Origin: a virus
IMG/VR virus record: IMGVR_UViG_3300035703_000022
Coordinates: 1-64,000 of that record
DNA length: 64,000 nt
Direction: 5' to 3' (one strand)
Within the stretch, counting starts at the first letter, position 1, and every line of letters begins with the position of its first letter. Below, in pieces: positions 16,997 to 59,415 of the stretch. The position numbers and the translations under genes are program-made. The notes under the pieces were generated by a model, which made no database searches, was not told the DNA's origin, and was given only the letters and a program-made list of their open reading frames with translations.

Positions 16997-17077
16997 AGGA
17001 AGTGCTGGTAAAAATGAATAATCTACTGGACCTACTGTTAGTTTATCGCCAATGTATTTTACGGGTTCTGCAGGCAT
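16208..17077 (-). CDS. Putative spike/baseplate protein, paralog A
   Basis: C-terminal FDIKHP..RLRHVCVEGP..IDLPDYW..LTPIG domain; downstream of gp5. Confidence 0.55.
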   Translation of the reverse strand: MPAEPVKYIGDKLTVGPVDYSFLPALPAIPGTTVLNGPVWIGAGGPPIPTANCMIGPGLNPISLQVIGIANFYSITNQIGINNRTGLANITGFTQKLGASTKAAFSGTTGYSAKSAAQTTAGPNYAQAFAQTPLAKAAVILGNVSTTTGINPTQAAALATKKPFDIKHPTKEGWRLRHVCVEGPTADVYVRGIIENSDIIDLPDYWTGLVDSETITISLTPIGEYQELSAKLLECNTKIKVFNNLGQVKKYSYLVFGERKDVDRNIAEYEGLSVEDYPGDNTQYGLFTL

Positions 17078-43542: not shown

Positions 43543-44032
43543 AGTGATATTGTTTCCACTCCTCTACATTAGTTTTTTCAAGATCAAAAATCATTTTATT
43601 TACAGGAGCTTTTGGTTTTCTTGCAAGTTTCATTCCAGTATGTTCCAAAAGCATACTACCTTTTTTAGTATTGCATGAACTACACGCAACGACTAAGTTT
43701 TCCCAAGTATCTTCTCCACCCCTTGAACGAGGAAGAACATGATCTATGGTTAGCTTAGACCTAGCACCGCAATACTGGCAAGTATGATTGTCCCTCTTGT
43801 AAATCATTGAACGAGAAGGATTAATATTCATAATTTTTGACAATGGTAACTTTACATAATCTAGTAGGCGAATAACTCTACTTGAAAGAACTTGAGCTTT
43901 CTCTTTTAGAAGAAGAACAATTGCTCTCTTCCAATTTGTAAAATTAATTGGTTCGTAACTAGAATTTAAGACCAATATTGTTTTGTATGGTTCTATTGGT
44001 AACTCATGCATGACTTTTTTATGAGCTATCAC
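43535..44032 (-). CDS. HNH endonuclease (McrA-like)
   Basis: LVLNSSYEP..RD.HTCQYCG..LTIDHVLPRSRGG..WENLV.AC..CN..KG. Confidence 0.9.
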   Translation of the reverse strand: MIAHKKVMHELPIEPYKTILVLNSSYEPINFTNWKRAIVLLLKEKAQVLSSRVIRLLDYVKLPLSKIMNINPSRSMIYKRDNHTCQYCGARSKLTIDHVLPRSRGGEDTWENLVVACSSCNTKKGSMLLEHTGMKLARKPKAPVNKMIFDLEKTNVEEWKQYHYD

Positions 44033-44039
44033 TATCTAG

Positions 44040-44681
44040 TCAAGATCCAAAAGGACCCCAACGACCTCTTTTGTTATCTTCATCACCATTCATTCTGGAT
44101 TCAAGTTTATCAATAAGTTGATCTGCTGCAATCAAATTATCAATTTCCATAATCATATCTGCAATGTGTTTTCCAACAAAAGGTTTTTCTTGTCGTGCTG
44201 CATAAGAAAGTGCATTACGCAAAGATTGTTCCGCGTCTCTTAGACTAGTTTCTACTGATTCTGATAGTGCCATGATTAAAAATTAACAGTTGATCGTTTT
44301 TGTTGAAATTCTTCTACAATTTCTAAAATTTTTTTGGATGTTTTCTTTGCAGATTCTTCATCCCAACTTTCACTAGAAACATTCAAAAGATAAATTTCAT
44401 TTGAAATTGAATCAATAAGTTTATCGTAGTTTGTCATTTTCAGATTTAAGTAAATTGTGATATTTCAAAACCTCAGGATTTTCCAAGTCTTTACATCTTG
44501 GATAAAAAATACCATCTCGATAACAAGAATTTTCAGGACTCTGAGGATCATATTTTACTACACGACTAGGATACTCTCTTGCATTACAAAGATCTCCTTG
44601 TCTTCGAACAAAGTTATCAAGGCATACTGCTCCAATAAATGGAGCAAGACCTTTTAACATGTATAAAGTATACATCAACAC
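44040..44681 (-). other. Three small hypothetical ORFs (44040-44273, 44276-44437, 44421-44681)
   Basis: ORF track plus manual reading. Confidence 0.55.
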
Positions 44682-45454
44682 TCATCCATTCCAAGAGGTT
44701 GAGTTACTTTTTTAATAAGATAAGAACCATCTCCCTGATCTACCCACTCAACGAAATCACCTTCTTTCAGATCTGTTGCTTCTAACAAATCATCGGGAAA
44801 TGTTACACAGTAAATATCTTCATCAGTATCTTCATCTCTTATTTCTTCAACAGGAAGAACCCACTTCTTTACTTTATCTTTAAGGGGAACAGTGCGATTA
44901 GGATCATTGCGAGTGTAGTCATAGTAATATTTGGAATGATTCAAATCAAGTTCAGTACGTTTGTTGTAATACTCTGCCTCACGCAGATTATACTCACGAC
45001 ACTTATTTTTTTCTTCATCAGATGCTGCCTTATCGCACATGGCATTCAGTTCTTCATCACTATATTTGAGTGCCTCCATATCACTATGACCCCAAGGTGG
45101 CATCACACTACTCACAGTTGAACCTTTATATTCTTCTGGATAGTAGTTTTCTTCCCAGAAAGAAGTCCAAGAATTTTTACATTCTGGTGATTGATCTTCC
45201 TTATCACACACAAGATTTTCTTTTTTCTCAACATATTCATCATATGTTGGAATATGCCCTTTGCCATTGCCATTCAAAAGTGCAAGAAGTTCATAGCAAC
45301 GGGAAGCGTTGTTTTTATAACAATAGTAATTGTCCTCAACTACTTTGCGAACACAGTCATAAATTTCTTGTGGAGATGCTTCAGCAGAATTTAGAGCATC
45401 TTCTACCCAATTCTCAAGGTTTTCAAGAGAATACTTTTTGTAGTCAAAGTCCAT
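44675..45454 (-). CDS. Hypothetical protein with C-terminal AbrB/MazE-like domain
   Basis: VTFPDDLLEATDLKEGDFVEW.D.GDGSYLIKK; upstream TTGACA-17-TATTAT at about 45481-45509. Confidence 0.6.
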   Translation of the reverse strand: MDFDYKKYSLENLENWVEDALNSAEASPQEIYDCVRKVVEDNYYCYKNNASRCYELLALLNGNGKGHIPTYDEYVEKKENLVCDKEDQSPECKNSWTSFWEENYYPEEYKGSTVSSVMPPWGHSDMEALKYSDEELNAMCDKAASDEEKNKCREYNLREAEYYNKRTELDLNHSKYYYDYTRNDPNRTVPLKDKVKKWVLPVEEIRDEDTDEDIYCVTFPDDLLEATDLKEGDFVEWVDQGDGSYLIKKVTQPLGMDEC

Positions 45455-45602
45455 TAATGTGATCCTTGATTGCTTGTTCTATAATAACTTGGATTTCCTT
45501 GCTTGTCAACCCATTTAACCACTTCCAATTTGGGTCTTGTGGATCCCAGTCCATCGTGAACGACCCATCTTCATTTTCTGTTATTTTAAGTGAATCTTCC
45601 AT

Positions 45603-47183
45603 CTATTTTTCAACTAATTGTTGTGTTTCTTCAAACCAAAGATAATCTAAAGAAGAATTATTTAGAGTTTTAACTGCATCTGTTGGAGTTTCTACTAATG
45701 GTTCCCCAGATAAATTAAAACTAGTATTCAAAAGTATTCCATGTCCAGATAATTTTTTAAATTCTTGCAAAAGTTCATATAAGTAACTATTATTTTTAGA
45801 AATAGTTTGAATTCTACATGTGTTATCTATGTGAGTTATACCAGACAACATTTTAACATATTCTGATCTTACTGGAAAACATATAGTCATAAATGGACTT
45901 GATTTTATTTTTCCTAGGTTGAAATAAACATCAGCATCTTCTTCCAGTACAACACATGCAAAAGGACGATACCATTCTCTTTTTTTGATTTTATTTACGA
46001 TATTTTTTGCTTCAAAATTTAAGGGATTAAAAAATATAGAACGATTCCCAAGTGCTCTTTGGCCAGCTTCTGCGATACCCCTATATACAGCAATAGATTT
46101 ATTCTGATTTAATAAATTACTAATATCTTTTATTGACGTTGTTTTACCTTTATATAAAGAAACATCATAATAAGATCCGTGGAAAAAAGTTGTCTGGATT
46201 TGATTTGGAATTTTATTTGTTAATTCTATGTGCGAATTCATTGCAGCTCCAATACTAACTCCATTATCATTACATACTGGTTCAAAATAAAATTCTACAT
46301 CAGGAAATCTCTGCAAGTAATAATAATTTGCAACAATATTCATACCATAACCACCAGAGATACAGACTTTCTTAATCCCTGTTTTTATTATTGAATCTTC
46401 TATTAGATCTCCAACTACTTTTTGGGTTTGTTGTTGAACCTCATAACAAAAATCCGCATGTAATTTGTAGTTTTTACTGTCTACTATTTTAATTGGATTC
46501 TTCAAAAATTGTTTGATTTCTTCAGAAGAGTTTTTATAAAAATCATTATTAAAAATATTTTTTTCTAAGAATAACTTTTTAAATGATTTATTATCAGATC
46601 CATATGAGGAAAGTCCCATTGCTTTTCCACAATCATCTGGAGTATTTCCCATCAAAATTGCAGCAATGTCATATAACTTACCGACTCCAAAAGTACCGTC
46701 TTCCCAAAAAAGATCAAATGGATTTGAATCTTCTATAATATTTTTATAAATTAAACTATTTTTATGTTTATCAAAAACAAAAACACTTTCTACTTCTACT
46801 AAGTTATCTCTAATTGTTGATCCGGCTCCATCAACTACAACAACGATACTTTCATCAAAACCACTATTGTAAAAGGCAAGAGAAGCATGATTTAAATGAT
46901 GATCCTGTTGCATCATTAATTTCACATTGGAGTTATATTTTTTACATTCTTCAAAAATTTTTGATATTATATCGTCTCTTGTATTAAAGTTAGATATGGT
47001 AACAACATCTAATTTTTGATCTAATTTATTACAAATATCATCTATCAATGTCAATATTATTGATTGATCATCATCGTGTTTTTTTCTTGTATATCTTTCC
47101 ACTAAGAAATATTGTTCTAAATTTCCATCATTTAGAACACATATCGAAGAGTCATGTCCCAAATGAATACTAAGTATTAACAT
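45603..47183 (-). CDS. O-carbamoyltransferase (NodU/CmcH/TobZ family)
   Basis: GHDSS, ERYTRKKHD, HHLNHA, VVDGAG, GKAMGLSSYG, SGGYGMN, E.GQRALGNRS, KKREWYRPFA, H.D.TCRIQT, LNTSFNL.GEPLVE. Confidence 0.93.
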   Translation of the reverse strand: MLILSIHLGHDSSICVLNDGNLEQYFLVERYTRKKHDDDQSIILTLIDDICNKLDQKLDVVTISNFNTRDDIISKIFEECKKYNSNVKLMMQQDHHLNHASLAFYNSGFDESIVVVVDGAGSTIRDNLVEVESVFVFDKHKNSLIYKNIIEDSNPFDLFWEDGTFGVGKLYDIAAILMGNTPDDCGKAMGLSSYGSDNKSFKKLFLEKNIFNNDFYKNSSEEIKQFLKNPIKIVDSKNYKLHADFCYEVQQQTQKVVGDLIEDSIIKTGIKKVCISGGYGMNIVANYYYLQRFPDVEFYFEPVCNDNGVSIGAAMNSHIELTNKIPNQIQTTFFHGSYYDVSLYKGKTTSIKDISNLLNQNKSIAVYRGIAEAGQRALGNRSIFFNPLNFEAKNIVNKIKKREWYRPFACVVLEEDADVYFNLGKIKSSPFMTICFPVRSEYVKMLSGITHIDNTCRIQTISKNNSYLYELLQEFKKLSGHGILLNTSFNLSGEPLVETPTDAVKTLNNSSLDYLWFEETQQLVEK

Positions 47184-48034
47184 TTCTCTAAAAATTTTGT
47201 TATGTCTTCCATTTTTACTTTCATGGTCATTTTTAGATCATTTGGTTTACCATAAGTAAAAAAGTCTTCCAATGGAAATTTATGGTGATGATTTTTCCAC
47301 CAATCTTCTATTAATCGACTACAAATTATATCTATAGGGAACATTTTATTATCATTCTGTTCACTATCTCCGTTTATATTGATATTAAGATTGAAAAGAG
47401 GAATTGAATATGTAATTCCAATATCAAATAAATTGGCATCTCCAGTTATATGAGTTTTACTGTATCTTTTATGAAAAGAATTATCTACAAATGTTAATCT
47501 ATATTTTCCATCACGGTACATCAAATCTTTAACTTTTTTTGCATATGATCGATTTATTAGGTATGCAGCTGCAGATCCAGAATCAGATCTTTTGTGTAAA
47601 AACATTGGTACAAATAGACCATTTGAATGATATGTACTGCAAAAGTAGAGTTGAATACATTCCCAATTTTCTGGTAGATTACTTTGAAAATATGTCCAAT
47701 CGAAATTCCAATATTTTATATTCTGTATTGATAAGTCATCTTCCATTATAATGCAAGTTTCAGAAAGATTACCATCATACCAATTAATGATGGTTTCTAT
47801 ATGATTTAATGCAGTTGACATTGCAGATAGACATTCCAAAATTCCATTCTCTACGATTATATCTTTCCATTCATCATATTTGGAAATGTCATACTTAGAA
47901 GCATTAATCCTTTGATAGTTTGTTATTCCCCAATTATTGAATTGAGATTCCATCCATTTTTTTCTATCAGTCCTATGAAAAAGATTGATATAGTAAATTG
48001 GGGGAAACTCTTTGAGTTTATTTTCTAAGTCCAC
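47177..48034 (-). CDS. Glycosyltransferase family 25-like
   Basis: YYINL..R.DR, IIMEDD, P.NWECIQL, AYLINR.YA. Confidence 0.85.
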   Translation of the reverse strand: MDLENKLKEFPPIYYINLFHRTDRKKWMESQFNNWGITNYQRINASKYDISKYDEWKDIIVENGILECLSAMSTALNHIETIINWYDGNLSETCIIMEDDLSIQNIKYWNFDWTYFQSNLPENWECIQLYFCSTYHSNGLFVPMFLHKRSDSGSAAAYLINRSYAKKVKDLMYRDGKYRLTFVDNSFHKRYSKTHITGDANLFDIGITYSIPLFNLNININGDSEQNDNKMFPIDIICSRLIEDWWKNHHHKFPLEDFFTYGKPNDLKMTMKVKMEDITKFLEKC

Positions 48035-48996
48035 TATTCTCTTTCAAGATCTAATGTAACGCAATGAAAACATCCACTCAATGTTCTTGAGTGTCTCATA
48101 GGGAGCATTGCACATTCTATACCGTGTTTTTCCAGTTCTTTTCGGGTAGGTTCTTGATGTTCTTCCAGAGCCACCAAATTAGGATTTACGCTGAAAAGAT
48201 TCATATTGATCCATTCAGAAGAATGGTTATATCCTGGATAATATCCAATATCTACTGGTTCTGGACACCAAACAACATCCCAGTTTCTAAAAGGTTCTGG
48301 GAGAATGTCCACAGACTTGATTCTTTCGGGATTTAATAACATCAAACCTTCACGAAGAAACGCAATCGTAGTATCTATGTGCATGTAACTATAAACACCC
48401 TGAAGAAGGTGAACTTTTGCACGATCTCTAAGCATTTCTTGAAGTAAATTAGCTCCCACAATATTTCCACTATTAGATACAAGATACAAAATATCATCAT
48501 TTGCACGAATAATATTTGCTGCATCAAATGCAGGAGTTACTTCCGTGAGTGCAAGAGTATCTTTATCTCCTACACAATCTTCATTGTAGAGTTCTTTTTG
48601 ATGTTTACATGGGACAATGATTGTTGTATCTAACCTATCAATTACGGATTTCCATGCATCTTTTCTACACTCCAACGGCATAGGAGTTGCAACGGTCAGA
48701 TCTTTATGGGTAAAGATTACATCTCTTGGACAAAAATTGTAATATTCTGTAGCAGTTCTTTTTGGTCTTACTACTTCTACGCCTTCTCCCAACAAAAACT
48801 TAACAAAGGTCTCCAAATCTTCATTTGCTTCATCTATGACTTGTTGTGGATATGGTCCAACTGGAACGTCTGAGACATCTTTTCTATCTGCATAGTTAAT
48901 TGTACGGACACTTAAATCTACTTCGGGAACTGTTGCATGGTCTGCAACTCCCACAACTACCTTTTTTAGTTTACTCCACTCATTTTGACTTTTCAT
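48034..48996 (-). CDS. Amidinotransferase (AGAT/StrB1 family)
   Basis: NEWSKLKKVVVG, CPRD, FDAAN, HIDTT, MN, GCFHCVTLDL.R; Asp/His/Cys catalytic motifs present. Confidence 0.92.
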   Translation of the reverse strand: MKSQNEWSKLKKVVVGVADHATVPEVDLSVRTINYADRKDVSDVPVGPYPQQVIDEANEDLETFVKFLLGEGVEVVRPKRTATEYYNFCPRDVIFTHKDLTVATPMPLECRKDAWKSVIDRLDTTIIVPCKHQKELYNEDCVGDKDTLALTEVTPAFDAANIIRANDDILYLVSNSGNIVGANLLQEMLRDRAKVHLLQGVYSYMHIDTTIAFLREGLMLLNPERIKSVDILPEPFRNWDVVWCPEPVDIGYYPGYNHSSEWINMNLFSVNPNLVALEEHQEPTRKELEKHGIECAMLPMRHSRTLSGCFHCVTLDLERE

Positions 48997-49493
48997 TTCT
49001 TGACCCCAGTGATTTGAATCGCATATCTATCTTTCATACTAAAATTATAAAATGCATGTATTTCATCATAATCCCAATAAAAACAATGCCCAGCTTTCCA
49101 TCTACAATATGCAGTATCTTTAACCTGCAAAATTTGACCTGGAGAACTATCTTCCAACATTACCATACATCGGATTACATTTTCAGAATCAACATTATTT
49201 AATTCTACATACTTTCCATAAAGATCTGTATGGAGAGGTAAATATTGTCCAGGTTTAAAATAATTAACTGCAGCAGCTACTTTATCTAAAAAACTAAACT
49301 TAGGAATAATATAATCATTCACGCATTTTGGCATAGGATTTGGTAAATGATATTTGTACATAGACAACTTATCTTTACTGTGTCCAGAATTCAAATATTG
49401 ATTTACTAACTCCTCATCTTTATGAGTACATAAAATATAATCAAGATTATAGAAGTCTTTAATATCCCAATTAGGCGTTATATGATTAATCAT
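48993..49493 (-). CDS. 2OG-Fe(II)/cupin hydroxylase (Asp/Asn beta-hydroxylase-like)
   Basis: PGQYLPLHTD..W.AG..H..YN..RY.IQITG. Confidence 0.75.
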   Translation of the reverse strand: MINHITPNWDIKDFYNLDYILCTHKDEELVNQYLNSGHSKDKLSMYKYHLPNPMPKCVNDYIIPKFSFLDKVAAAVNYFKPGQYLPLHTDLYGKYVELNNVDSENVIRCMVMLEDSSPGQILQVKDTAYCRWKAGHCFYWDYDEIHAFYNFSMKDRYAIQITGVKK

Positions 49494-50089
49494 GCAAATA
49501 CTGACATTCTCGTTAAATCAGGGTAATCCCTGTGGCTCCATTTTTTACCGGGAATTTTTTTCCGCTCATTTAGTAATTTAATTCCGATTTTGGCCACCTC
49601 AGGGGTCATATAGTAATGATACCCGATAGTATCTATGTCTTGTTCAACCCATGGACGACTGAGATCACGACCATCATAAGACATTTTTTTCAGTGTATCA
49701 TAATCTTCTTTGTTTTGCAATAAGATCGCACCACCTCTTCCAAGGTTTAAGTGTTTTTTAAACTGAAAACTTAAACACATAAACGTACCAGGAATATAAG
49801 TATTCTCTCCCCAAAGAACAGCAGCATCAATGATATTTGTAGGTGCTAAGTAATAATAATCAGACCATTCTTCTTCCCTCCAGTTCCAGTCTAATCTAAG
49901 TTTCATACAGGTCATTGGAACTGAAATATAAGTTCTCGTAGGGATGGTAATATAATCTTCCTGAGTATGTCTTAAACAAAGTTCCAATGCATGAGTACAC
50001 GAATCAGTAGCTACTGCATAAGGGGATCCGAAAAACTCTGCAATTTGATTCTCAAATTCAGTAACGTACTCAAACATTTTCAAATTCAC
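49490..50089 (-). CDS. Minimal DegT/DnrJ/EryC1/StrS PLP aminotransferase
   Basis: FE..IAEFFG..AVATDSCTHALEL, IIDAA, SFQFKKHL..GRGG; only 199 aa. Confidence 0.85.
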   Translation of the reverse strand: MNLKMFEYVTEFENQIAEFFGSPYAVATDSCTHALELCLRHTQEDYITIPTRTYISVPMTCMKLRLDWNWREEEWSDYYYLAPTNIIDAAVLWGENTYIPGTFMCLSFQFKKHLNLGRGGAILLQNKEDYDTLKKMSYDGRDLSRPWVEQDIDTIGYHYYMTPEVAKIGIKLLNERKKIPGKKWSHRDYPDLTRMSVFA

Positions 50090-50921
50090 TGGGTAAAATT
50101 ATTCTATCATTTGGTTTGCCATAAGTAAAGAAGTCTTCCAAAGTATATTCATCTCGAAGTTCTGTCCACCATTTTTTACATGATTTGTACGAAAATTCTA
50201 AATCACCTCTTTCCTCTTTTCTACAAATATTTTCAGCATAACTACCAAAACGTTGATTTATAGAAAACAAAGGCATGGAGTAAGTTTTGCCATTATGACA
50301 TAAAAAATAGTCTACCGTAAAATTTGGATTGTTAGTTTCTTTTTCAGTCCATTTATAATTACAGATTTTTTTGGATAAATCAAACTTACCATCTTTATAA
50401 TGAAGACTTATAATTTTTTCTGCATATCTTCTATTAATCATACAACCCCCAACTCCATGGCCAGGTAAAATTGGATGTAAAAAACAAGGAATTAGATCCG
50501 GATTTTCAAAACTCATTTGTATACAGTCCCAATCATAGGGGATATTGTTCATTAAATATTGCCAATCAAAGTGCCAGTATTCAATAAAAAATAAATCATA
50601 GTCATCCTCCATTAAAATTAAATATTTTTCATTGGTAGTTTCCAACCAATTCTTAATTATTAATAGATATGAAAGGGCTATACTTGTATCGGTAATATGT
50701 CGTTTATTTTTCTCGATGTCCTTTGGAAATGGGTTCAAAATAACCATATTTTTCCAATCTTCATATGTAGAAAATTGGTATTTTGATCCAGATACTTTCG
50801 TATAATTTGATATCCCCCAATAATCATATTGTATCTCAGCATATTTTTGTCTGTCCTCCCTTTCATCCAAAGTCAATAACATAATATGAGGAAGATCTTT
50901 TAATTTATTAGCTAAATTCAT
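50070..50921 (-). CDS. Glycosyltransferase family 25-like
   Basis: LDEREDR, LMEDD, PYDWDCIQ, INRRYA. Confidence 0.8.
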   Translation of the reverse strand: MNLANKLKDLPHIMLLTLDEREDRQKYAEIQYDYWGISNYTKVSGSKYQFSTYEDWKNMVILNPFPKDIEKNKRHITDTSIALSYLLIIKNWLETTNEKYLILMEDDYDLFFIEYWHFDWQYLMNNIPYDWDCIQMSFENPDLIPCFLHPILPGHGVGGCMINRRYAEKIISLHYKDGKFDLSKKICNYKWTEKETNNPNFTVDYFLCHNGKTYSMPLFSINQRFGSYAENICRKEERGDLEFSYKSCKKWWTELRDEYTLEDFFTYGKPNDRIILPSEFENV

Positions 50922-51787
50922 ATATCTATCTCTCTCGGTGTAATTATTCTATCATTTGGTTTGCCATAAGTAAAGAACTCATCCAAAGTATACTCATCTC
51001 TAAGTTCTGTCCACCACTTTTTATAAGCTTTATAAGAAAACTCTAAATCAGTTCTCTCTGGTTTTCTGCAAATATTTTGAGCCCAACTACCAAGATTTTG
51101 ATTTACGGAAAATAGAGGAATGCAGTAAGTTTTTCCATTGTGACCTAGAAAATAATCTGTGGTAAAATTTGGCATACCTAGTCCTTCATAGGTAGAGATG
51201 CCCTTGGGTGACCACTTATAGTTAGAAATTTTTTGTGAGAGATCAAACTTACCATCTTTATAATGAAGACTTATAATTTTTTCTGCATATCTTCTATTAA
51301 TTAATGAACCTCCACTATCATGTTTAGCTAGAATTGGATGCAAAAAACAGGGAATTTCTTCTTCATTTTCAAAACTCATCTGAATACAATCCCAATCATA
51401 CGGAAGACTATTCATCAGATATTCCCAATCAAAGTGCCAATGTTCTATAAAACTTAGATCATAGTCATCTTCCATGATAATAACATATTGATCATTACTA
51501 GTCTCCAACCAATTTTTAATGTTTACTAAATGGGAAAGAGTAATAGAAATTTCTGCAATATGATGATTCTTTCTCAGATAATCTTCAGGAAAAGGATTCA
51601 AAATAACTAAATCTTTCCAATAATTTTCATATGTTGAAAGTTGATACTTTGATCCAGATACTTTTGTATAATTTTTTATTCCCCAATAATCATATTGAGT
51701 TTCGGTATATTCCAACCTATCCTTTCTTTCATCTATTGTTGCCAGAATAATAGGAGGAAAATTTCGTAACTTATCTTTTAAATTCAT
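50918..51787 (-). CDS. Glycosyltransferase family 25-like
   Basis: DERKDR, SH, IMEDD, PYDWDCIQ, LINRRYA. Confidence 0.8.
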   Translation of the reverse strand: MNLKDKLRNFPPIILATIDERKDRLEYTETQYDYWGIKNYTKVSGSKYQLSTYENYWKDLVILNPFPEDYLRKNHHIAEISITLSHLVNIKNWLETSNDQYVIIMEDDYDLSFIEHWHFDWEYLMNSLPYDWDCIQMSFENEEEIPCFLHPILAKHDSGGSLINRRYAEKIISLHYKDGKFDLSQKISNYKWSPKGISTYEGLGMPNFTTDYFLGHNGKTYCIPLFSVNQNLGSWAQNICRKPERTDLEFSYKAYKKWWTELRDEYTLDEFFTYGKPNDRIITPREIDI

Positions 51788-52586
51788 GACTCACTTCTAT
51801 GCACAATTCTTTCATTCTAGATGAATTTAAATAAAAAATATCATCCAAAGTATAATTTAAAGACTTACGTTTCCACCAATCTAAAACTATAACATCACAA
51901 TTTTTAGCCATATAATTTATATCTCCATTCCTAAGTCCATCACTTACAAAATTATAATTAGTAGTGAAAATTGGAATAGAATAAGTAACCCCTATTTGAT
52001 ACAAAACAAAATCTACAGACTGGTAATGATATTGTGGCCAATTTAAATTATATCCGTAATTAGAATACAATTTAAATTTTTCATCCACATAATGAAGATT
52101 GATGAGTTTTTGTGCATATGATCTATTAATAAGTATGCATCCAGTAGAGTGATTATTCCTAGTCCATTTGGATAAATTCATCTTAACAAATCTCTCACCA
52201 ATAATATGAAGTTGAACACATTCCCAATTGCAAGGTAAATTATTTTCAAAAGTTTTCCAATCAAAATTCCAGTATTCAACTGGTTCTAGGCATAAATCAT
52301 CCTCAATAATTAAACAAGTTTCCGAAACATTTGATTCATACCAATCAATTATGCCATGCATTCTATCAATTAAAGTAGCAAGAAACCATACTTGCGTTCT
52401 AAGTTTATCAGTTATTACTTTAGGTTTCCATTCTTTGTAATTATCTACCGAATATCTAGAAGAATTAACTCTATGGTAGTCTTTTATCCCATATTTTGAG
52501 AACTGGGTTTCCAAGTACTCTCTGCGATCTGCTCTATGATCTAAGTTAAAATAATATATGGGAGGAATCGTATCCAACTTTGTCAT
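51771..52586 (-). CDS. Glycosyltransferase family 25-like
   Basis: YYFNLDHRADRR, IIEDD, P.NWECVQL, LINRSYA. Confidence 0.8.
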   Translation of the reverse strand: MTKLDTIPPIYYFNLDHRADRREYLETQFSKYGIKDYHRVNSSRYSVDNYKEWKPKVITDKLRTQVWFLATLIDRMHGIIDWYESNVSETCLIIEDDLCLEPVEYWNFDWKTFENNLPCNWECVQLHIIGERFVKMNLSKWTRNNHSTGCILINRSYAQKLINLHYVDEKFKLYSNYGYNLNWPQYHYQSVDFVLYQIGVTYSIPIFTTNYNFVSDGLRNGDINYMAKNCDVIVLDWWKRKSLNYTLDDIFYLNSSRMKELCIEVSHEFKR

Positions 52587-53380
52587 TATAAATTTACTTT
52601 TACAGTCATTTCAGAATCATTATCTTTACCATAAGAAAAAAATTCATCTAAAGAATAATTATCTCTCAGATTGTTCCACCAATTATAGTAAATATCTCTG
52701 CAGATAAAATGATGTTTTTTGGGTATTTTATCTAACTCTGGATTTTGAGTTATTAGAGGTAATTGATATGTTTTTCCTAGAAAAGAAAAGAAACCATCCA
52801 ATGAAACGACTCGATAACCTTTATTAAATGGATGAATTCCATATTTACGAATTAATAGATATTTTTCTTTGAAATAGTGTAAGTTGATTAATTTTTGAGC
52901 AAAATGTCTATTAATTAAGAGTGGACCAAAAGCACTAGTCTGATCCTTTGGATGTAGAAAAAACTTAATATGATACGATGATTCATATCCCAATTGTATA
53001 CAATCCCAATCATATGGAATGTTATTCATTAGATATTGCCAATCAAAGTGCCAGTGTTTGATTAAACTTAAATCATAATCGTCTTCCATAATAATAAGAT
53101 ATTTTTCATTGGTAGTTTCCAACCAATATCTAATCATTTCAAAAGTCGAGAGACTAATTGAAGCAGTTAATATATGATCGTCTTTTGTAATCATTTCAGA
53201 AAAATGTAATACATCTTTCCAATCATTATAATTTTTAGATAAGTAATTTGATCCAGAAAATCTCACCACATTAGTGAGATTCCAGTTTTCAAATTGTGTT
53301 TCCATATATTTTCTTCTATCCAATTCAGAATCCAAATTTAGATAGTAGATACTAGGAATTCCTTTAAGTTTATCAGACAT
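52586..53380 (-). CDS. Glycosyltransferase family 25-like
   Basis: YYLNLD..DRR, IMEDD, PYDWDCIQL, LINRHFA. Confidence 0.8.
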   Translation of the reverse strand: MSDKLKGIPSIYYLNLDSELDRRKYMETQFENWNLTNVVRFSGSNYLSKNYNDWKDVLHFSEMITKDDHILTASISLSTFEMIRYWLETTNEKYLIIMEDDYDLSLIKHWHFDWQYLMNNIPYDWDCIQLGYESSYHIKFFLHPKDQTSAFGPLLINRHFAQKLINLHYFKEKYLLIRKYGIHPFNKGYRVVSLDGFFSFLGKTYQLPLITQNPELDKIPKKHHFICRDIYYNWWNNLRDNYSLDEFFSYGKDNDSEMTVKVNL

Positions 53381-54542
53381 ACCAAGTAATAATAGAATAT
53401 CTAGTTCCAGAAATTACCGGCATTATTTCATGTGGATACATAAAATTTGAAGGAAACATGATAATAGATCCTTTAGAACCTCTTATTATGATTTCTCTAT
53501 CAAAAAATGCAAACTCACCTCCTTCATAATCATCATTCAAAAGAAAAGAACAACTTACTGATCTTTGTTGATTTTTGAATGAATCGGTATGTTGAATATA
53601 AAACTGTCCTTTTTTATATCTCAGTAAATCATAACCAGTGTCAATCTCTGAAGCAACTTCTGGAAATATTTTTCTATATTCATTTATAGCATTTGAAGCG
53701 CAGACATAAAAATCCTCATCTAATTTTTTTCTAACATCAAAATTCTTTTGGTGTGCAATATCACTAGATATACTTAAAATATCGCAATTCCTAACCTTAT
53801 CATCAACATTTCCAACACCTACACTACTCTGTTGCCAAAGACTACATCCTTGATATTCTTCCAAAATTCTATCACACAATTCTTTCGGAACAACATTATC
53901 TAATGTAAAAATATAGTCTTCTAATGATTTTTTACTCTTAATGTGAATTGGTTTTGTTTCTGATTTTTTCTTAGGAACAATATCTTCAACTATTGGTTTA
54001 GTCGTTTCATTAAGTTTATCGAAGTATGTATATGAACAATCTCCACGACTTCTAACATAATGTAAAAATACTTGGGTATAGTATTCACCATGATAAGAAT
54101 TTCTCCAATGTGGAGCAATTTTACCAAGATAAATCATGGCATCTCCCGGATTTAAATCCACGGAATGTTGTTCTCCTGTTGGGGTTTCAATCCATATTGG
54201 CCAATCAGAATCACCATGCAAATGCAAAGTCAATGATATTTCACAAGCATCTCTATCGATATGACGTAGTAATTCACTACCATTTTTATAAATTCTAGCG
54301 TAAGTATACGTAGGTAAGACAGTTTCTCCAATCGCATTAGAAATTTCTGAAGTTTTTTCACAAAGTAATTCTAAAAATGGAATGTAATTATACTTGGAAT
54401 AAGAATTTGGAGCTTGTTCATCTCCATTTAAATTATTTTCTTTGCAATACTCCAAAAATTCAAAAGAAAGAGAATCCGACCTTTCCTTTGAAATAAAATT
54501 TGGTAGTACAATATAATTATTATTAATTAATTTATCATTCAT
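53373..54542 (-). CDS. Two-domain 2OG-Fe(II) oxygenase (C-terminal domain prolyl-4-hydroxylase-like)
   Basis: Domain 1: RIY..G..L.RHIDR..HWR. Domain 2: LRY..GQFY..HTD..LNDDYEGGEF..FPSNFMYPHE..PV..GTRYSI. Confidence 0.88.
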   Translation of the reverse strand: MNDKLINNNYIVLPNFISKERSDSLSFEFLEYCKENNLNGDEQAPNSYSKYNYIPFLELLCEKTSEISNAIGETVLPTYTYARIYKNGSELLRHIDRDACEISLTLHLHGDSDWPIWIETPTGEQHSVDLNPGDAMIYLGKIAPHWRNSYHGEYYTQVFLHYVRSRGDCSYTYFDKLNETTKPIVEDIVPKKKSETKPIHIKSKKSLEDYIFTLDNVVPKELCDRILEEYQGCSLWQQSSVGVGNVDDKVRNCDILSISSDIAHQKNFDVRKKLDEDFYVCASNAINEYRKIFPEVASEIDTGYDLLRYKKGQFYIQHTDSFKNQQRSVSCSFLLNDDYEGGEFAFFDREIIIRGSKGSIIMFPSNFMYPHEIMPVISGTRYSIITWYV

Positions 54543-54565
54543 AATTTAATATAATCAATGAAAGT

Positions 54566-55078
54566 TTAAATTTCTTTTAGTAACTCCTCAATATCATAAA
54601 ATAGATCTTCATCTTCATCATCTTCTTCAACTTTTTGATTAGGAAGCAAAGGTTCTACTGGAGGTATGTGGTTTGGTGTTGGTGGAATATATGTTTCTGC
54701 TACTACTTCATCAACAAAGTCATCAAAGTTCTCAATAGATATGCCATCTTCATCATCAAAAGAAATGAATTGTGATCTCACACGTTCTTCATGTTCTTTT
54801 TTAAGTCTCTCTTCTTCCTCTAAACGTTTTTGTAGAAGTGCATCCTCTTCTTCTTTTCGTTCGTTCCATAAATTAACTGCGGTTTGGAATATACCCAGCT
54901 CAGTAATTTCCAAATTTTGATCTGGTCCAACAAATTCAACTTCACCTTTAGTATCATACCACTGAACTGCATGAACTTTCTTTCCATCAATATCAGGAAC
55001 CCAACTCATATCCAAATCGGAATATCCAATTCCATTTAAATAAACAGAACGATCTATAGGAATAATAGATAGTCTCAT
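54566..55078 (-). CDS. Hypothetical protein (possible fibre-assembly factor) with acidic tail
   Basis: RLSIIP.D..V..HAVQW..GEVE; adjacent to fibre-like genes. Confidence 0.5.
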   Translation of the reverse strand: MRLSIIPIDRSVYLNGIGYSDLDMSWVPDIDGKKVHAVQWYDTKGEVEFVGPDQNLEITELGIFQTAVNLWNERKEEEDALLQKRLEEEERLKKEHEERVRSQFISFDDEDGISIENFDDFVDEVVAETYIPPTPNHIPPVEPLLPNQKVEEDDEDEDLFYDIEELLKEI

Positions 55079-55081
55079 AAT

Positions 55082-55426
55082 TTATTCTCCTAAATTTTCT
55101 GGTAACGTGTGAGTACTTGTCAAAGAAGTTATATTTACTGGCAAAATACCATTTTGTTGAATCATATCAATATATAGTTGTCTATTTTCATCATTAGACT
55201 TTACTACTTCGTTTCTAAATGACTCTACTGCTGCTCCAGTTTGTCTCTGTTGTTGAGAATTTTCAATAGTTAACATAGGCATCCAAGTAACAGCACATGA
55301 CCAATGATCTACATCTTCTCCCGTATTTGGATTCATTCCCCTTACATGCATATACCAAGAACACTTATGTTCTACACAGTCCTTTTTAATCAAGGGACAA
55401 AAATTTCCAGATTGATTTTTTTTCAT
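55082..55426 (-). CDS. Cys-rich conserved phage protein
   Basis: CPL..DC..C.W..G.NP.TG..CA..P.L.IENS..AAVESFRNE. Confidence 0.6.
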   Translation of the reverse strand: MKKNQSGNFCPLIKKDCVEHKCSWYMHVRGMNPNTGEDVDHWSCAVTWMPMLTIENSQQQRQTGAAVESFRNEVVKSNDENRQLYIDMIQQNGILPVNITSLTSTHTLPENLGE

Positions 55427-55461
55427 ATTGAAATAACAATTATACTATATTCTACTACAAC

Positions 55462-55980
55462 TTAATTAAAACTACAAACAATAACATCAATATACTGAAC
55501 CCTAAGATCTAAATCGATTGTAAAATTAGCTGTACCAGACCATGGGTGGGAATGAGATTCTCCTCCACCAGTAGATCCTGTTGATGGTGTAGTTCTAGTC
55601 CAACCAGAACCACTTCCAACATCACCACCACCAGGAGACAATCCAATAGCGCCTGAGTTTGGGTGTGTATGACTTGGCAATTGGGCAGTTGTTAATGTAT
55701 GATTACCAACAGATCCAGTCATTGGTATACTTGGGGATGTTACAGTTCTAAGGGAGGTAGGAAATACTGTACTAAAAGATGAAGTTCCACCAGAACCTCC
55801 TCCATCACCATTAACAACTCTAAGAGTCTTATCATTATGGGTTGTACTCTTTGTCCACCCAGAGGGTGCGGATTGTTGAAAAAATATAGATACTGAACTT
55901 TGAGGGACAATACCATATTTGGAATTCAAAATTGTATTATCACCAAAAACTACTCCAGAAGATGTTAATTTAGCTGCCAT
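55462..55980 (-). CDS. Short tail-collar/fibre-tip-like protein, paralog 1
   Basis: F.Q.SAPSGWTK..HN.K.LRVV.G, HTLT..QLPSHTH, HSH, VQY.D.I.C. Confidence 0.65.
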   Translation of the reverse strand: MAAKLTSSGVVFGDNTILNSKYGIVPQSSVSIFFQQSAPSGWTKSTTHNDKTLRVVNGDGGGSGGTSSFSTVFPTSLRTVTSPSIPMTGSVGNHTLTTAQLPSHTHPNSGAIGLSPGGGDVGSGSGWTRTTPSTGSTGGGESHSHPWSGTANFTIDLDLRVQYIDVIVCSFN

Positions 55981-56018
55981 TTTATATAATGTAAACTACA
56001 GATTGTTATTAACAGTAT

Positions 56019-56567
56019 TTATCCATCAAAAGTACAGATAATAATATCTACATATTGAACAGATATACTAACTGATTGTGGGCTTACGGGTCCACTTACA
56101 CTAACAGGATGACTATGACCGTCGCCTCCAGTAAATTCACCTATTGCAGGAGTTGTTCTAGTCCAACCAGCAGATCTAATTACATCGCCTCCATTCCATC
56201 CAATAAAAGATCCATCTGGGTTAAATAATTGTGGAACTGCATCCAATCCAGTTGGTTGAGGGTGGGTATGAGACGCAATTTGACTAGTTAATAATTGATG
56301 TGGTCCAGAAGGATTAGTAGAATATATTGTACCTCCAATATTAAAACTACTCATAGTAGATGTAAATGAATTTGTTCCCCCAGAACCTCCACCATTACCA
56401 CTAACAACTCTAAGTGCCTTATTGTTGTGAGTTGTAACCTTAGTCCATCCGGAGGGTGCTGATTGTTGATAAAAAATCCAAGAAGTACCTGTACTAAAAA
56501 TACCTCTTTTGGAATTTAGTTGGCTTGTGTCACTAAATGTAATACCATTTGCAGTCAATTTGGCCAT
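56019..56567 (-). CDS. Short tail-collar/fibre-tip-like protein, paralog 2
   Basis: Same motif set with HTH/HSH pairs. Confidence 0.65.
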   Translation of the reverse strand: MAKLTANGITFSDTSQLNSKRGIFSTGTSWIFYQQSAPSGWTKVTTHNNKALRVVSGNGGGSGGTNSFTSTMSSFNIGGTIYSTNPSGPHQLLTSQIASHTHPQPTGLDAVPQLFNPDGSFIGWNGGDVIRSAGWTRTTPAIGEFTGGDGHSHPVSVSGPVSPQSVSISVQYVDIIICTFDG

Positions 56568-56598
56568 TTTTTATTCCAACATATTACCTATCTTAGAA

Positions 56599-56606
56599 TA
56601 TTTATA
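56599..56606 (-). promoter_or_regulatory. T4-type late promoter
   Basis: TATAAATA about 30 nt upstream of the ATG at 56567. Confidence 0.7.
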
Positions 56607-56608
56607 AT

Positions 56609-57920
56609 TTAATTTTTGGGCTTTATCTTATTACATTCGTTACAATAATAACTAAATCCATCTCTAAAATATTTTACTTTTTGAAAGTTTTCTTCATTCA
56701 GTGATTTAGTCTCACCACATTTACTACATGTCCTTTCCGTATTGTTTTTTTGCTCGCTTGAGATCTTTGAGTTCTGCTTTAATTTCTTTATAAGCGGCGT
56801 TAGCATCAATTTTTCCCCCCATTTCTAATGCACAAATAATATCCACTCTAGTGCCAAAATGTGCAAGTGCTTTTTCAAAATCGTCTAATTCATACATCGT
56901 AATCAATCCTACAATGTTCTGCAATAATATCTATACGAGCATCTAAAGAATTTTCCATCTCATACAAAGCATTAGTCAAACCTACATTTTCTTCTTCCAA
57001 TACTTTAATACGATCTTCAAGTTCTTGCAACTTTTGAAAGACTACATCACCAGGAGTAGGATCTGGGAACCCCCACTTCTTAAAAAACCAATAAGGATCA
57101 CTCATAGTCCAACAGACCTCAGATAATTTTCATATCTCATAAATCTTTGAAGTGATGGAGTTACTCCAAGACTTTCACAACACCTACAATATGAAATAAA
57201 TTCATACCAAGGCGTTGTCGGATCCGTATCACTCACAATTTGCCTCCTACTGTACCTTCGTGAATTTTTTCGGGTTCAGGGAAACCTTCCTGCCGTCCTT
57301 TAAGATAAAAACGGGTTGCTGCAACACATTGTTCTTCAGTGAGAGACGTGACCAATCCTTTTCCATCAGAATCGGTTGATTCCCAGAGTCCATACTTTCT
57401 TTGAGTAATGTAAAAACAATCATCAATTAATTTCTTTTCGGTCATTTACTTGTTTTACAATTTCATGAAGTTGTTTCAGTGCCTCAATGGTTTCAGGAGT
57501 TTCTTCCCAAAACCAAGAATTGCCGTTTTTGTCTACAAATGTGCGTTCAGTCATACTTATAACTCAATGTAATGTCTTTCTTTTTAAGATTGTATCGATC
57601 AATATGTTTTTTACGGTGTTCTTCACTCTGAAAATAACACTTACGAGTTTCTTTTCCGTCTGCGTGAATCAATTTATAAGGAAATTGATCGAAAGGGAAT
57701 TCTTCTTCCCTATTTTGAGAAACCGTTAGTTCACTTTTCTTTGGTCGTCCCATAATCATTAAGTCGGCTGCTCTACTCGTTGAGTATACACGGTATCAAA
57801 CAGTTCGTCAAGTATGGTGGCGCACTCCCAGTATTCTTTACTGTCGTGAGTGCATTTTTCAATCTGATAACGACGAACTGCATTATGAATAAGTTTCCAC
57901 TGATCTTGTCTGAATTCCAT
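56609..57920 (-). other. Run of about 8 small hypothetical ORFs, including a CxxC..CxxC zinc-finger ORF
   Basis: ORF track plus manual reading (57102-57236, 57759-57920); promoter TTGACG-17-TATACT at about 57783-57811. Confidence 0.6.
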
Positions 57921-57921
57921 A

Positions 57922-58395
57922 TTACTCTCCTAGTGTATGAATAACTGGTTTTTCGTGTGCTAGTATATGGTAAAGGTCTGGGTTCTTTGCTGCTGATATC
58001 GGAACAAATTCCGTCTCAGAATCAAACTCTTCGTCACGAATTGCCTGGTTGATAACAATAGAACCATCTATACCAGAGTATGAACGATGAAAAGTCATTT
58101 TAGGAATGACCAAAGCACCAGAAGAACGATTAAGATGAACAATATGGTAAGGATATCTCCATTCTGGATTGACCAACTCAAAAGTTCTCATTCCAGATAA
58201 CACACGATTATGATCTATTTGATGATAATGAATATAAAATTGTTTTGCTCCTACAATGTCATCTGGTGGACTGATAGCCGGACCAGTATGACATACTAAG
58301 TCTTGTGCATTTGATCCATCTACTGATATATCATAAAATACAACCGATTCTGTTTCACGGAATACTCTATGTTTTTTAAAAGTTACTTCGCTCAT
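57922..58395 (-). CDS. Cupin-fold (RmlC-like) protein
   Basis: FYIHYHQ.D..RVLSG.R.FELV..LVIP..FHRS.S. Confidence 0.55.
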   Translation of the reverse strand: MSEVTFKKHRVFRETESVVFYDISVDGSNAQDLVCHTGPAISPPDDIVGAKQFYIHYHQIDHNRVLSGMRTFELVNPEWRYPYHIVHLNRSSGALVIPKMTFHRSYSGIDGSIVINQAIRDEEFDSETEFVPISAAKNPDLYHILAHEKPVIHTLGE

Positions 58396-59411
58396 TTTAA
58401 CAGGTTTAAATAAGATCCACTATAGACTCCACCTTCTATATATTCATCATAATTTGGTGCCCATTTATTAACATTAATATCACTAGAACAGTGACACAAT
58501 GTTGTATTGCAGATGATTGGACTAGTTGGCCACTTAATGTTTTCATAGTCTTCTATTTCTCCAATAAAGTCCCCAACCATACAATTTCCGGGTTTTATTT
58601 TCCCATCATAATGCACAAATAAACTTTTTAATCCTATTTCACATGTATATCCTTCAAAATTAGTCATTCCAGAATTAACGAATTGGACCGGATTAATTTC
58701 CATACCTGATACAATAGATCCATCGTCAAATTCGAAAGAAGAACCCATATCTACTGGTTGATGTTTTGGTAATAAGTGATTCATGATTTTACGATGACCC
58801 TTATTATTTTCTTGATCATCAAACCAATCTAATTGATCTTTCGTGTAAACATGTGCATCTCTATTTTCACCACCGAAGTCTAAAATTCTAACAGGTTCCA
58901 CACAAGATGTAGGAATATCTGATATGGAATTGAATACTTCTACGCAATGATCCCACATAGATGGTAACATCATAACTCTTACAGTTAGATAAGTATTTAA
59001 ACTAGATGCAATTATTTTTTCCTTAAAGTCTTTAACTGGAAACTCGGGATGATATGAAAAACAAATATAATACAAATATTTTGAAATATCTTCCCAATAC
59101 TCTATTGATTTGATAGCATTACTAGTCACACCTATAGTGTTACCAGAAGAATTAAATTTTTTTACCAGATCTGGAAAGAATGGGCTAAGAGTTGGTTCAC
59201 CTCCACTTACTGAACAATGAACATTTGAATAATTTTCAAATAATTTATCTAAAAATTTTTCTGCATTTTCCCAACTATAGTGATGTCCAATGCCTGAATT
59301 TAAAGCGGGTATACAATATGAACATCTATTATTACACATATTGTTAATTACCCAAGTTAAATTCATAAAAGATTGATCATTTTGAATTACTCTAATAATT
59401 TTTTTGTTCAT
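58392..59411 (-). CDS. Radical SAM protein with C-terminal Cys cluster
   Basis: CNNRCSYC, SGGEPTL, TSN, SYHPEF; C..G..C..C..C.C tail. Confidence 0.9.
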   Translation of the reverse strand: MNKKIIRVIQNDQSFMNLTWVINNMCNNRCSYCIPALNSGIGHHYSWENAEKFLDKLFENYSNVHCSVSGGEPTLSPFFPDLVKKFNSSGNTIGVTSNAIKSIEYWEDISKYLYYICFSYHPEFPVKDFKEKIIASSLNTYLTVRVMMLPSMWDHCVEVFNSISDIPTSCVEPVRILDFGGENRDAHVYTKDQLDWFDDQENNKGHRKIMNHLLPKHQPVDMGSSFEFDDGSIVSGMEINPVQFVNSGMTNFEGYTCEIGLKSLFVHYDGKIKPGNCMVGDFIGEIEDYENIKWPTSPIICNTTLCHCSSDINVNKWAPNYDEYIEGGVYSGSYLNLLK

Positions 59412-59415
59412 TATA

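Follow-up and report, generated by a model that had tools for sequence, protein, structure and literature searches.

In the streptidine/bluensidine branch of aminoglycoside biosynthesis, the DegT-family aminotransferase StsC is followed by the amidinotransferase StrB1. Collagen-type hydroxylysine glycosylation combines a protein-hydroxylase-type 2-oxoglutarate (2OG) oxygenase with GT25-fold glycosyltransferases (GTs), as in LH3 and COLGALT1 or in Mimivirus L230, R655 and R699. R655 has been described as a putative collagen galactosyltransferase homologue and provides a viral precedent (PMC9546862). Among phages, P-SSM2 and S-SCSM1 carry lipopolysaccharide (LPS)-like clusters, for which modification of the cyanobacterial host surface is a proposal in the literature (PMC12801897 and work cited there). 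In Campylobacter phages CP220 and CPt10, a block of radical SAM genes and a 'glycine amidinotransferase' gene has been described as an interchangeable module with unknown role (PMC2853527). Here we describe a ten-gene enzyme operon of a T4-like cyanophage that shares elements with each of these systems. The operon lies within a stretch of 64,000 nucleotides, positions 1 to 64,000 of IMG/VR virus record IMGVR_UViG_3300035703_000022, which we refer to as the window.

The operon and its relatives in other phages

The window is part of an incomplete 138.5-kb contig of a T4-like cyanomyovirus, and its source is a virus of marine or lake cyanobacteria. It encodes gp32, gp59, PhoH, ThyX and a baseplate and tail module; psbA, psbD, talC and gnd are situated just outside. 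The ten enzyme open reading frames (ORFs) run along the minus strand from 54542 down to 45603 (Table 1). In order, they encode a double Fe(II)/2OG oxygenase, four GT25-fold transferases (GTa to GTd), a half-size DegT-family pyridoxal phosphate (PLP) enzyme, a small cupin/double-stranded β-helix (DSBH) oxygenase, a StrB1-like L-arginine amidinotransferase, a fifth transferase (GTe) and a TobZ/NodU-class O-carbamoyltransferase. All nine junctions overlap (by 8, 1, 17, 4, 20, 4, 4, 1 and 7 nt, 5' to 3' along the operon). The initial annotation had described ten coupled genes with overlaps of 1–20 nt, and the ORF layout agrees. Its order of enzyme identities was also correct, each being confirmed by domain, profile, structure or PDB matches. 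The coupling is conserved: 272 of 297 oxygenase-to-amidinotransferase junctions in related loci overlap. Four more minus-strand ORFs precede the enzymes. Two are paralogues, listed initially as collar/fibre-like, and both indeed resemble fibre tips; the other two, o114 and o170, had been missed. The GC content is 0.28–0.30 across the GT and carbamoyltransferase genes (46001–48000 and 50001–54000), 0.35 in the amidinotransferase stretch and ~0.34 in the window, a contrast that suggests different origins of the modules.

We tentatively favour one reading of this locus. It would be a soluble, cytoplasmic operon for glycan assembly or tailoring, an optional and hypervariable add-on to the tail-fibre-tip module of a T4-like cyanophage, and would most likely decorate a protein of that module. 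The individual parts of this reading differ in strength. That the operon builds or tailors a glycan is highly probable. Production of a guanidino sugar is evenly balanced, and a phage protein as the acceptor is possible, at a little short of that balance.

The glycan assignment draws first on the company that the amidinotransferase keeps. We retained 80 amidinotransferase-centred viral loci and counted genes by tblastn at ≥50% coverage, with edge-cut contigs included; the loci are from related phages, some from the same contigs, and the co-occurrence counts are not independent events. A GT and/or nucleotide-sugar enzyme is encoded at 78 of the 80, the two exceptions being short or edge-cut. 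Besides the amidinotransferase (80), the half-size DegT and small oxygenase genes each occur at 75 loci, GT25-like genes at 60–61, the double oxygenase and o114 each at 47, fibre-like genes at 43–44 and the carbamoyltransferase at 31. Thus, the cassette genes recur together in other phages, the outcome of a check that the initial annotation had proposed. Their order is conserved. One to three fibre-like genes precede o114, o170, the double oxygenase, one to five GT genes and the half-size DegT gene; variable inserts, the small oxygenase, further variable inserts, the amidinotransferase and a variable tail then follow. Inserts in sister loci encode GDP-mannose 4,6-dehydratase (Gmd; 2.5e-113), UDP-glucose and GDP-mannose dehydrogenases (UGDH-like), an epimerase and a sulfotransferase, together with GT2/GT7-type transferases and many radical SAM enzymes. 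The first interpretation of the locus as glycan tailoring is strengthened by the insertion of Gmd, dehydrogenase, epimerase, sulfotransferase and GT2/GT7 genes into the same frame. A second glycan operon in the same genome, and the orthologue clades formed by the GTs, also argue for a glycan. The cassette is intact and under evident constraint.

No sugar-activating or dehydratase enzyme is encoded in the operon. Similarly, Pfam searches and a hydrophobicity check found no flippase, polymerase, priming transferase or ligase among its products. None of 19 proteins tested has a hydrophobic stretch of transmembrane grade, and the operon proteins are predicted to be soluble and cytoplasmic.

The second, larger glycan operon is also on the minus strand and lies outside the window (genome 70260–82047; L083:7260-19845 including its wcaG RNA). 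It encodes two Gmd/epimerase-type enzymes, UGDH, a NAD-synthase-like amidotransferase candidate, GT10, three GT11 enzymes, GT7C, a bona fide GT25 and an OprB/SLH porin, and is syntenic with ORF235-248 of cyanophage S-SCSM2R. At its head is a wcaG RNA (RF01761; ~82747–82845) with a score of 58 bits, above the gathering threshold of 42. GDP-4-keto-6-deoxyhexose from this operon is a plausible substrate for the half-size DegT enzyme. A third cluster, at genome ~94687–104740 (L084:11687-19872, L085:199-1740), encodes a C39-like peptidase, a second carbamoyltransferase (489 aa), two radical SAM-SPASM enzymes and an AMP-binding enzyme, and is reminiscent of peptide-modification loci.

A megablast search with the 11-kb cluster gave no match among phage records. 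Relatives of the amidinotransferase are present in 13 of 50,697 such records: S-SCSM2R (70% identity) and 12 Campylobacter phages of the CP220/CPt10 type (23–26%). An amidinotransferase had been called unusual in a phage. That does not hold for uncultured phages, where we counted 220 confirmed IMG/VR stretches and, at E ≤ 1e-10, 4646 representatives of protein clusters. We found homologues of the carbamoyltransferase in 146 phage records.

Synechococcus phage S-SCSM2R is the sole cultured cyanophage record in this set that was found to have the cassette. Its ORF299-310 (PQ898602; BMC Biol 2025, PMC12801897) are syntenic with the window and comprise o114, o170, the double oxygenase, GTs, the half-size DegT enzyme, the small oxygenase and the amidinotransferase. 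Unlike the window, S-SCSM2R has a radical SAM insert and a GT2 gene at the end of the cassette. Its carbamoyltransferase and fibre-like genes are instead at its other glycan operon, 44 kb away. There, the fibre-like paralogues directly precede an operon whose first elements are a wcaG RNA and the carbamoyltransferase gene. From the proteome of CsCl-purified S-SCSM2R virions, a second amidinotransferase (ORF266) and a P4H (prolyl 4-hydroxylase)-type oxygenase (ORF269) are reported (PMC12801897). The cassette is a variant of virus-encoded glycosylation machinery that is already in print at annotation level. Literature on phage amidinotransferases and cyanophage GTs yielded no characterised function for it, and we found no paper that pairs a guanidino sugar with an amidinotransferase. 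Mentions of amidinotransferases in a 7-deazaguanine paper (PMC10516641) were merely reference-list entries on the unrelated tRNA enzyme ArcS.

The more distant systems each match the window in part. Like the window, the streptidine/bluensidine branch has a StrB1-type amidinotransferase, an adjacent DegT-family gene and a TobZ-class carbamoyltransferase. By analogy, the shared step is likely to be conversion of an amine to a guanidine with arginine as donor. Conversely, the half-size DegT form, five GT25 genes and a P4H-type oxygenase set the window apart, and Pfam, NCBIfam and PHROGs searches found no cyclitol dehydrogenase, kinase or phosphatase in the 14 cluster ORFs. StrB1 itself acts on scyllo-inosamine 4-phosphate, and Pfam showed no cyclitol genes near the phage enzyme. 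The collagen system shares the pairing of oxygenase and GT25-fold transferases but is without amidino or carbamoyl tailoring, whereas the window's contig is without a G-X-Y acceptor. In CP220/CPt10, a homologous amidinotransferase (24–26% identity over its full length) is encoded beside GT-A-type transferases in a hypervariable block. That block differs in its five radical SAM genes and in the lack of a GT25 array, a half-size DegT enzyme and a carbamoyltransferase; the small oxygenase was not detected by tblastn. The P-SSM2 and S-SCSM1 clusters resemble the window's genome in their hypervariable blocks of GT and nucleoside diphosphate (NDP)-sugar genes and in the wcaG RNA but, as described, lack the amidino trio (half-size DegT enzyme, small oxygenase and amidinotransferase).

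Several observations point to a protein, and to the fibre module, as the target. First, the nearest solved relatives of the double oxygenase are protein hydroxylases, and those of the GTs include COLGALT1 and Mimivirus R655. Second, fibre-like genes are found upstream of the enzymes here, beside the other glycan operon in S-SCSM2R and flanking distant versions of the cassette. The latter tail-fibre-like genes match phrog_4492 in locus L065 (1.4e-46) and phrog_19602 in locus L078 (3e-13). Third, P4H-type oxygenases follow the fibre module even in the absence of GTs: loci L163 and L154 have no GT, yet the module there is still followed by the double oxygenase together with one or two additional P4H-type enzymes.

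Table 1. Features of the locus, listed 5' to 3' on the minus strand.
Feature	Position	Strand	Basis or remark
TATAAATA, T4-type late-promoter-like motif	56599..56606	-	31 nt before ATG of fibre-like gene 1
Fibre-tip-like protein 1, 182 aa, two HxH motifs	56019..56567	-	profile match to solved tail fibres
ATAAATA (GATAAATA), late-promoter-like motif	56016..56022	-	35 nt before ATG of fibre-like gene 2
Fibre-tip-like protein 2, 172 aa, ~45% identity to protein 1	55462..55980	-	paralogue
o114, 114 aa, four invariant Cys, virus-only family, fibre-gene partner	55082..55426	-	alignment A3
o170, 170 aa, acidic	54566..55078	-	alignment A4
Double Fe(II)/2OG oxygenase, 389 aa	53373..54542	-	PF13640 64.9 bits
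GTa, GT25-fold, 264 aa	52586..53380	-	phrog_2835 1.3e-36; AlphaFold2 and Foldseek
GTb, GT25-fold, 271 aa	51771..52586	-	own orthologue clade, support 100/100
GTc, GT25-fold, 289 aa	50918..51787	-	PHROG, EDD motif, tree
GTd, GT25-fold, 283 aa	50070..50921	-	GTc duplicate, 70% identity
Half-size DegT-family PLP enzyme, 199 aa	49490..50089	-	PF01041 61.8 bits
Small cupin/DSBH oxygenase, 166 aa, HxD...H...R	48993..49493	-	PF05118 23.4 bits
StrB1-like L-arginine amidinotransferase, 320 aa	48034..48996	-	PDB 1bwd E 1e-57
GTe, GT25-fold, 285 aa	47177..48034	-	phrog_2835 2.3e-41; PF01755 22.5 bits
TobZ/NodU-class O-carbamoyltransferase, 526 aa	45603..47183	-	Carbam_trans_N and Carbam_trans_C
Sigma-70-like promoter TTGACA-17-TATTAT, 11/12	45481..45509	-	consensus match only; just 3' of last gene

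Enzymes of the proposed pathway

In the order of steps that we envisage, the P4H-type double oxygenase would first hydroxylate a protein acceptor, most likely an adjacent fibre-module protein or another virion protein. The C-terminal half of this enzyme scores well over the 27-bit cutoff of PF13640. In a profile search of the PDB, it matched Bacillus anthracis P4H (3itq/5hv0; E 1.2e-7) across the whole C-terminal domain, and then PHD2, P3H1 and LH3. All of these nearest solved relatives are protein hydroxylases, and the enzyme is closer to prolyl than to lysyl hydroxylases. TET/JBP enzymes were absent among the matches. The N-terminal half is a second HxD...H domain. Residues H94, D96 and H145 of this domain, and H318, D320, H371 and R381 of the other, are invariant in 25 double-oxygenase sequences.

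The GT25-fold transferases, five genes of four lineages, would then add sugars sequentially, as COLGALT1 and LH3 do on collagen hydroxylysine. All five GTs match phrog_2835 (1e-36 to 1e-41). Only GTe matches PF01755, falling below the 24-bit cutoff, and the other four have no Pfam match. The AlphaFold model of GTa (pLDDT 93.7) has as its top Foldseek matches in the PDB Mimivirus R655 (3e-9), a bacterial beta-1,4-galactosyltransferase (3e-7) and human COLGALT1 (1e-6). When the model was compared with a viral structure library, 28 of the 50 best matches were labelled GT25, mostly from giant viruses (best 6.5e-16). Neither the viral nor the PDB top 50 includes a DNA glucosyltransferase. An acidic EDD metal-binding motif is present in all five window GTs and in 26 of 27 aligned members. 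The window GTs are 29–35% identical to the bona fide PF01755 gene of the same genome (53 bits). In a tree, the GTs form four well-supported lineages and position-specific orthologue clades. GTd is a recent copy of GTc, and GTe is a deep sister of the GTb clade (support 100/99).

Next, the half-size DegT enzyme, the small oxygenase and the amidinotransferase would convert a keto or amino sugar to a guanidino sugar. The phage's Gmd-type operon at 70–82 kb is a candidate source of that sugar, and L-arginine would be the amidino donor. The first of these enzymes had been called a DegT aminotransferase. It is a member of PF01041 (cutoff 19.8 bits) but, rather than a standard two-domain enzyme of ~360–390 aa, it is a virus-specific half-size form (194–204 aa across homologues) that belongs to virus-only clusters. 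Its alignment with sugar aminotransferases falls into two blocks separated by a deletion of ~45 residues, and the C-terminal domain is lacking. The PLP lysine K112 and the ring-nitrogen aspartate D88 align with solved members and are invariant in 31 sequences of 194–204 aa. The small oxygenase is barely over the PF05118 cutoff and, by sequence, has no match in the PDB. Its H88, D90, H146 and R156 are invariant, and its AlphaFold2 model has a pLDDT of 94.6.

The amidinotransferase has no Pfam match. It aligns with StrB1 (1bwd) over its full length, residues 4–319 against 7–339, and with HsvA, SxtG and AGAT at 1e-26 to 1e-30. Residues D92, H206 and C312, which are invariant in all 56 distinct sequences, correspond to the CPRD, H(V/I)D and FHC motifs of StrB1. 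Their StrB1 counterparts form the catalytic Asp-His-Cys triad, which is intact in the phage enzyme. A single-sequence scan of cellular genome contigs found no relative; an alignment-based scan of such contigs found 212 confirmed relatives of 36–41% identity. In marine Halieaceae, Zhengella (presumably of the Hyphomicrobiaceae) and Planctomycetota, the homologue is followed by a ~1400-aa protein that resembles nonribosomal peptide synthetases (NRPSs) and has an A domain, a carrier domain and hexapeptide repeats (L193:6855-14275, L242, L224, L226, L199). SbnA/SbnB-like genes often precede the homologue. These loci look like a conserved, apparently uncharacterised guanidino-amino-acid pathway. 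For the S-SCSM2R orthologue, the best match given is a cyanobacterial 'inosamine-phosphate amidinotransferase 1' with 44.5% identity (supplement of PMC12801897).

Finally, the TobZ-like enzyme would O-carbamoylate a hydroxyl. It exceeds the cutoffs of both Carbam_trans_C (179.2 bits, 6.5e-53) and Carbam_trans_N (78.9 bits, 6.4e-22). In the PDB, it matches 7xb6 (1.5e-39) and TobZ (8e-37), and also NovN and GdmN. The equivalog cutoff for NodU was missed (128.9 vs 1000); hence, the enzyme is not NodU itself.

The fibre module and its late-promoter-like motifs

A profile of the fibre-like family, built from the 39 sequences of alignment A2, finds two solved trimeric tail fibre proteins, 9qgo (E 4.6e-7) and 9nxk (E 2e-6). 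The match covers the receptor-binding C-terminal parts of both structures, with both HxH motifs aligned. Within the family, the four His residues are invariant and the intervening loops are hypervariable. The two window proteins have no Pfam or PHROG match, and the family gave only scattered chance-level matches against Pfam at E up to 1.

Protein o114 is strongly conserved, and its clusters in the protein atlas are almost wholly viral and consist of hypothetical proteins. We drew o114-centred loci from at least 582 confirmed viral-contig stretches. A fibre-like gene adjoins o114 in 60 of the 66 that have at least 1300 nt of upstream DNA. Thus, o114 follows the fibre-like genes and not the enzymes, consistent with a widespread fibre module and an enzyme cassette that is an optional downstream add-on. 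For the same reason, o114 is less likely to be the dedicated acceptor of the oxygenase. In o170, a variable acidic linker joins a conserved N-terminal domain to the C-terminal peptide DIEELLKEI, which is invariant; the protein matches nothing in Pfam or PHROG. A Pro-rich patch in the window's o170 was considered as a conserved hydroxylation site and rejected, because the patch is not conserved.

Other genes of interest are nearby. A radical SAM gene (339 aa), located ~1.4 kb upstream of the fibre genes, shares a 4-nt overlap with a 157-aa gene of phrog_9052 ('hemagglutinin', 3.3e-81) (57922–59411, minus strand). The two recur in 23 and 7 of the 80 related loci, respectively. Two tandem phrog_17490 paralogues are in the tail and baseplate region (15303–16202 and 16208–17077, minus strand).

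The initial annotation had placed the operon under a late promoter. This stands for the fibre-like genes, both of which are preceded by a T4-type late-promoter-like motif (Table 1); no enzyme gene has a motif of its own. Taken over the whole window, the bare motif is no more frequent than chance would predict (5 found vs 9.5 expected). In related loci, however, the position is conserved: of 59 distinct regions upstream of fibre-like genes, 52 have ATAAATA 20–37 nt ahead of the ATG. Equivalent counts were 0 of 35 for the double oxygenase, 1 of 32 for o114, 0 of 32 for o170 and 0–4 for each of the other enzyme families. Hence, the late promoter belongs to the fibre genes, and late expression of the enzymes would need read-through. 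We infer from the layout that the enzymes may be co-transcribed late with the fibre genes.

A terminator consensus scan of 43000–60000 gave 12 weak matches, compared with 6.1 expected from shuffles. All are within coding sequence and none is in an intergenic gap, in line with the earlier remark that no obvious terminator separates the fibre genes from the enzymes. The strongest terminator-like match of the region is a 13-bp hairpin followed by TTTTTGG (54459–54492, minus strand), ~50 nt into the double-oxygenase ORF from its 5' end. Downstream of the operon, a 148-nt gap (45455–45602, minus strand) contains the sigma-70-like promoter, which likely starts the next transcription unit. In this gap, an ATG immediately follows the carbamoyltransferase stop codon, and the short ORF enters the next gene in a different frame.

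Alternative products and acceptors

Several results weigh against a guanidino glycan on the fibre module. The counts over the 80 loci are, as noted, not independent. Among the o114-centred loci, the oxygenase is present at 32 of 66, a GT at 20 of 61 and the amidinotransferase at 10 of 33; the fibre module is without enzymes in about half, and its adjacency to the cassette may only mark an insertion hot spot. The late-promoter motif is absent before o114, o170 and every enzyme gene. No collagen-like run of at least five G-X-Y repeats was found in six frames of the incomplete contig, and a collagen-like acceptor encoded there was rejected. The GT25 family includes lipooligosaccharide (LOS) galactosyltransferases. 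Fold matches of the small oxygenase are generic (AspH, AsqJ, proline hydroxylases (P3H) and plain cupins, with TM-scores of ~0.5). The missing C-terminal domain and ~45 residues make activity of the half-size DegT enzyme uncertain. Lastly, we inspected the neighbourhoods of cellular amidinotransferase relatives in eight lineages. These contained SbnA/SbnB-like PLP and ornithine-cyclodeaminase genes, the NRPS-like A-T-hexapeptide protein, LysE exporters, GDSL enzymes and once a carbamoyltransferase, and none contained a GT. The cellular clade looks like an amino-acid pathway enzyme with amino-acid acceptors. Thus, a sugar acceptor for the phage enzyme rests on the phage context only.

The strongest alternative, although unlikely, is remodelling of the host envelope. 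In this scheme, the LPS core or exopolysaccharide would be built or altered during infection via a carrier, flippase and ligase of the host, blocking superinfection, grazers or adsorption of progeny. The membership of LOS/LPS galactosyltransferases in GT25 (the PF01755 name) and the beta-1,4-galactosyltransferase among the top fold matches are consistent with such a role. So are the second glycan operon, with its wcaG RNA and terminal OprB/SLH porin gene, and the host surface modification proposed for genes of this kind; the S-SCSM2R GTs are listed, by annotation only, as cell-wall modification genes (PMC12801897). Conversely, the operon has no membrane protein, priming transferase, flippase, polymerase or ligase, and its oxygenase is of the protein-hydroxylase type. 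Fibre genes are linked to glycan genes in three arrangements, and a lytic T4-like phage has scant time for envelope renewal.

It is rather improbable that the locus encodes no single pathway. The fibre module, the oxygenases, the GT25 array, the amidino trio and the carbamoyltransferase would then be a mosaic of independent modules, sharing a hypervariable insertion site and a transcript, not a product. Such modules can indeed be found apart: the amidino trio without GT25 genes in loci of the L062 type, the fibre module without enzymes, and oxygenases without GTs. The carbamoyltransferase, present at fewer than half of the 80 loci, heads a different operon in S-SCSM2R. However, coupling across the ten genes is conserved in relatives, as is the order of the frame, and the amidino trio keeps a GT or NDP-sugar partner at all loci apart from the two short or edge-cut ones.

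A soluble small molecule, either an aminoglycoside-like or a guanidino-amino-acid metabolite, is less probable again. Here, the GTs would glycosylate a small aglycone. The best solved matches of the tailoring enzymes are natural-product enzymes (StrB1, SxtG and HsvA; TobZ, NovN and GdmN), the cellular relatives are in NRPS-like or exporter loci, one with a carbamoyltransferase, and ORF305, ORF306 and ORF309 of S-SCSM2R are termed 'antibiotic synthesis genes', as annotation only (PMC12801897). Against this, Pfam searches of the operon found no inositol/cyclitol enzymes, kinase, exporter or resistance gene. Five GT25-fold transferases of four lineages fit a small aglycone poorly, and the phage amidinotransferase is nearly always found amid GT or NDP-sugar genes.

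The combination of an oxygenase with a GT-A enzyme is known for base J and phage TET systems. Hypermodification of DNA, with the oxygenase hydroxylating a base and the other enzymes building a DNA glycan that evades restriction, is nevertheless very improbable here: a Mom-family protein (PF25680, 5.6e-23; 12002–12613, minus strand) is encoded in the window and DNA glucosylation has been raised as a further possibility in the work on S-SCSM2R (PMC12801897), but the oxygenase matches P4H/PHD enzymes rather than TET/JBP, a search of the ORFs of at least 90 aa on the incomplete contig turned up no thymidylate-synthase-type hydroxymethylase, C5-methylase or TET/JBP domain, and DNA glucosyltransferases are missing from the top 50 fold matches. 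The Mom-family gene adjoins two tRNA genes (12810–12990) and an HNH endonuclease gene (11404–11859).

Glycan decoration of the fibre module remains the reading that we tentatively favour. In its most specific form, cyanophages would decorate their own receptor-binding fibre-tip proteins by prolyl or lysyl hydroxylation, followed by a GT25-built glycan with a cationic guanidino sugar and a carbamoyl group. We regard this full version as doubtful. If true, it would be a Skp1- or collagen-like system for hydroxy-amino-acid glycosylation in a bacterial virus. A guanidino sugar in a glycan would be a chemistry for which the literature searched gave no paper, and the hypervariability of the enzyme set would serve to tune host range or protect the fibres. 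The cultured carrier S-SCSM2R makes the reading directly testable.

Giant viruses and a few phages are known to encode their own glycan machineries, whereas the LPS-like blocks of marine cyanophages are functionally blank. The present cassette is abundant, as the numbers of viral stretches and cluster representatives with the amidinotransferase or o114 attest, and it joins a streptomycin-type amidinotransferase to GT and/or nucleotide-sugar enzymes at nearly every locus. If the product is a guanidino/carbamoyl glycan on fibres, it would represent both new sugar chemistry and a new class of phage protein modification. It would also be a new variable in cyanophage host range and, hence, in marine carbon cycling.

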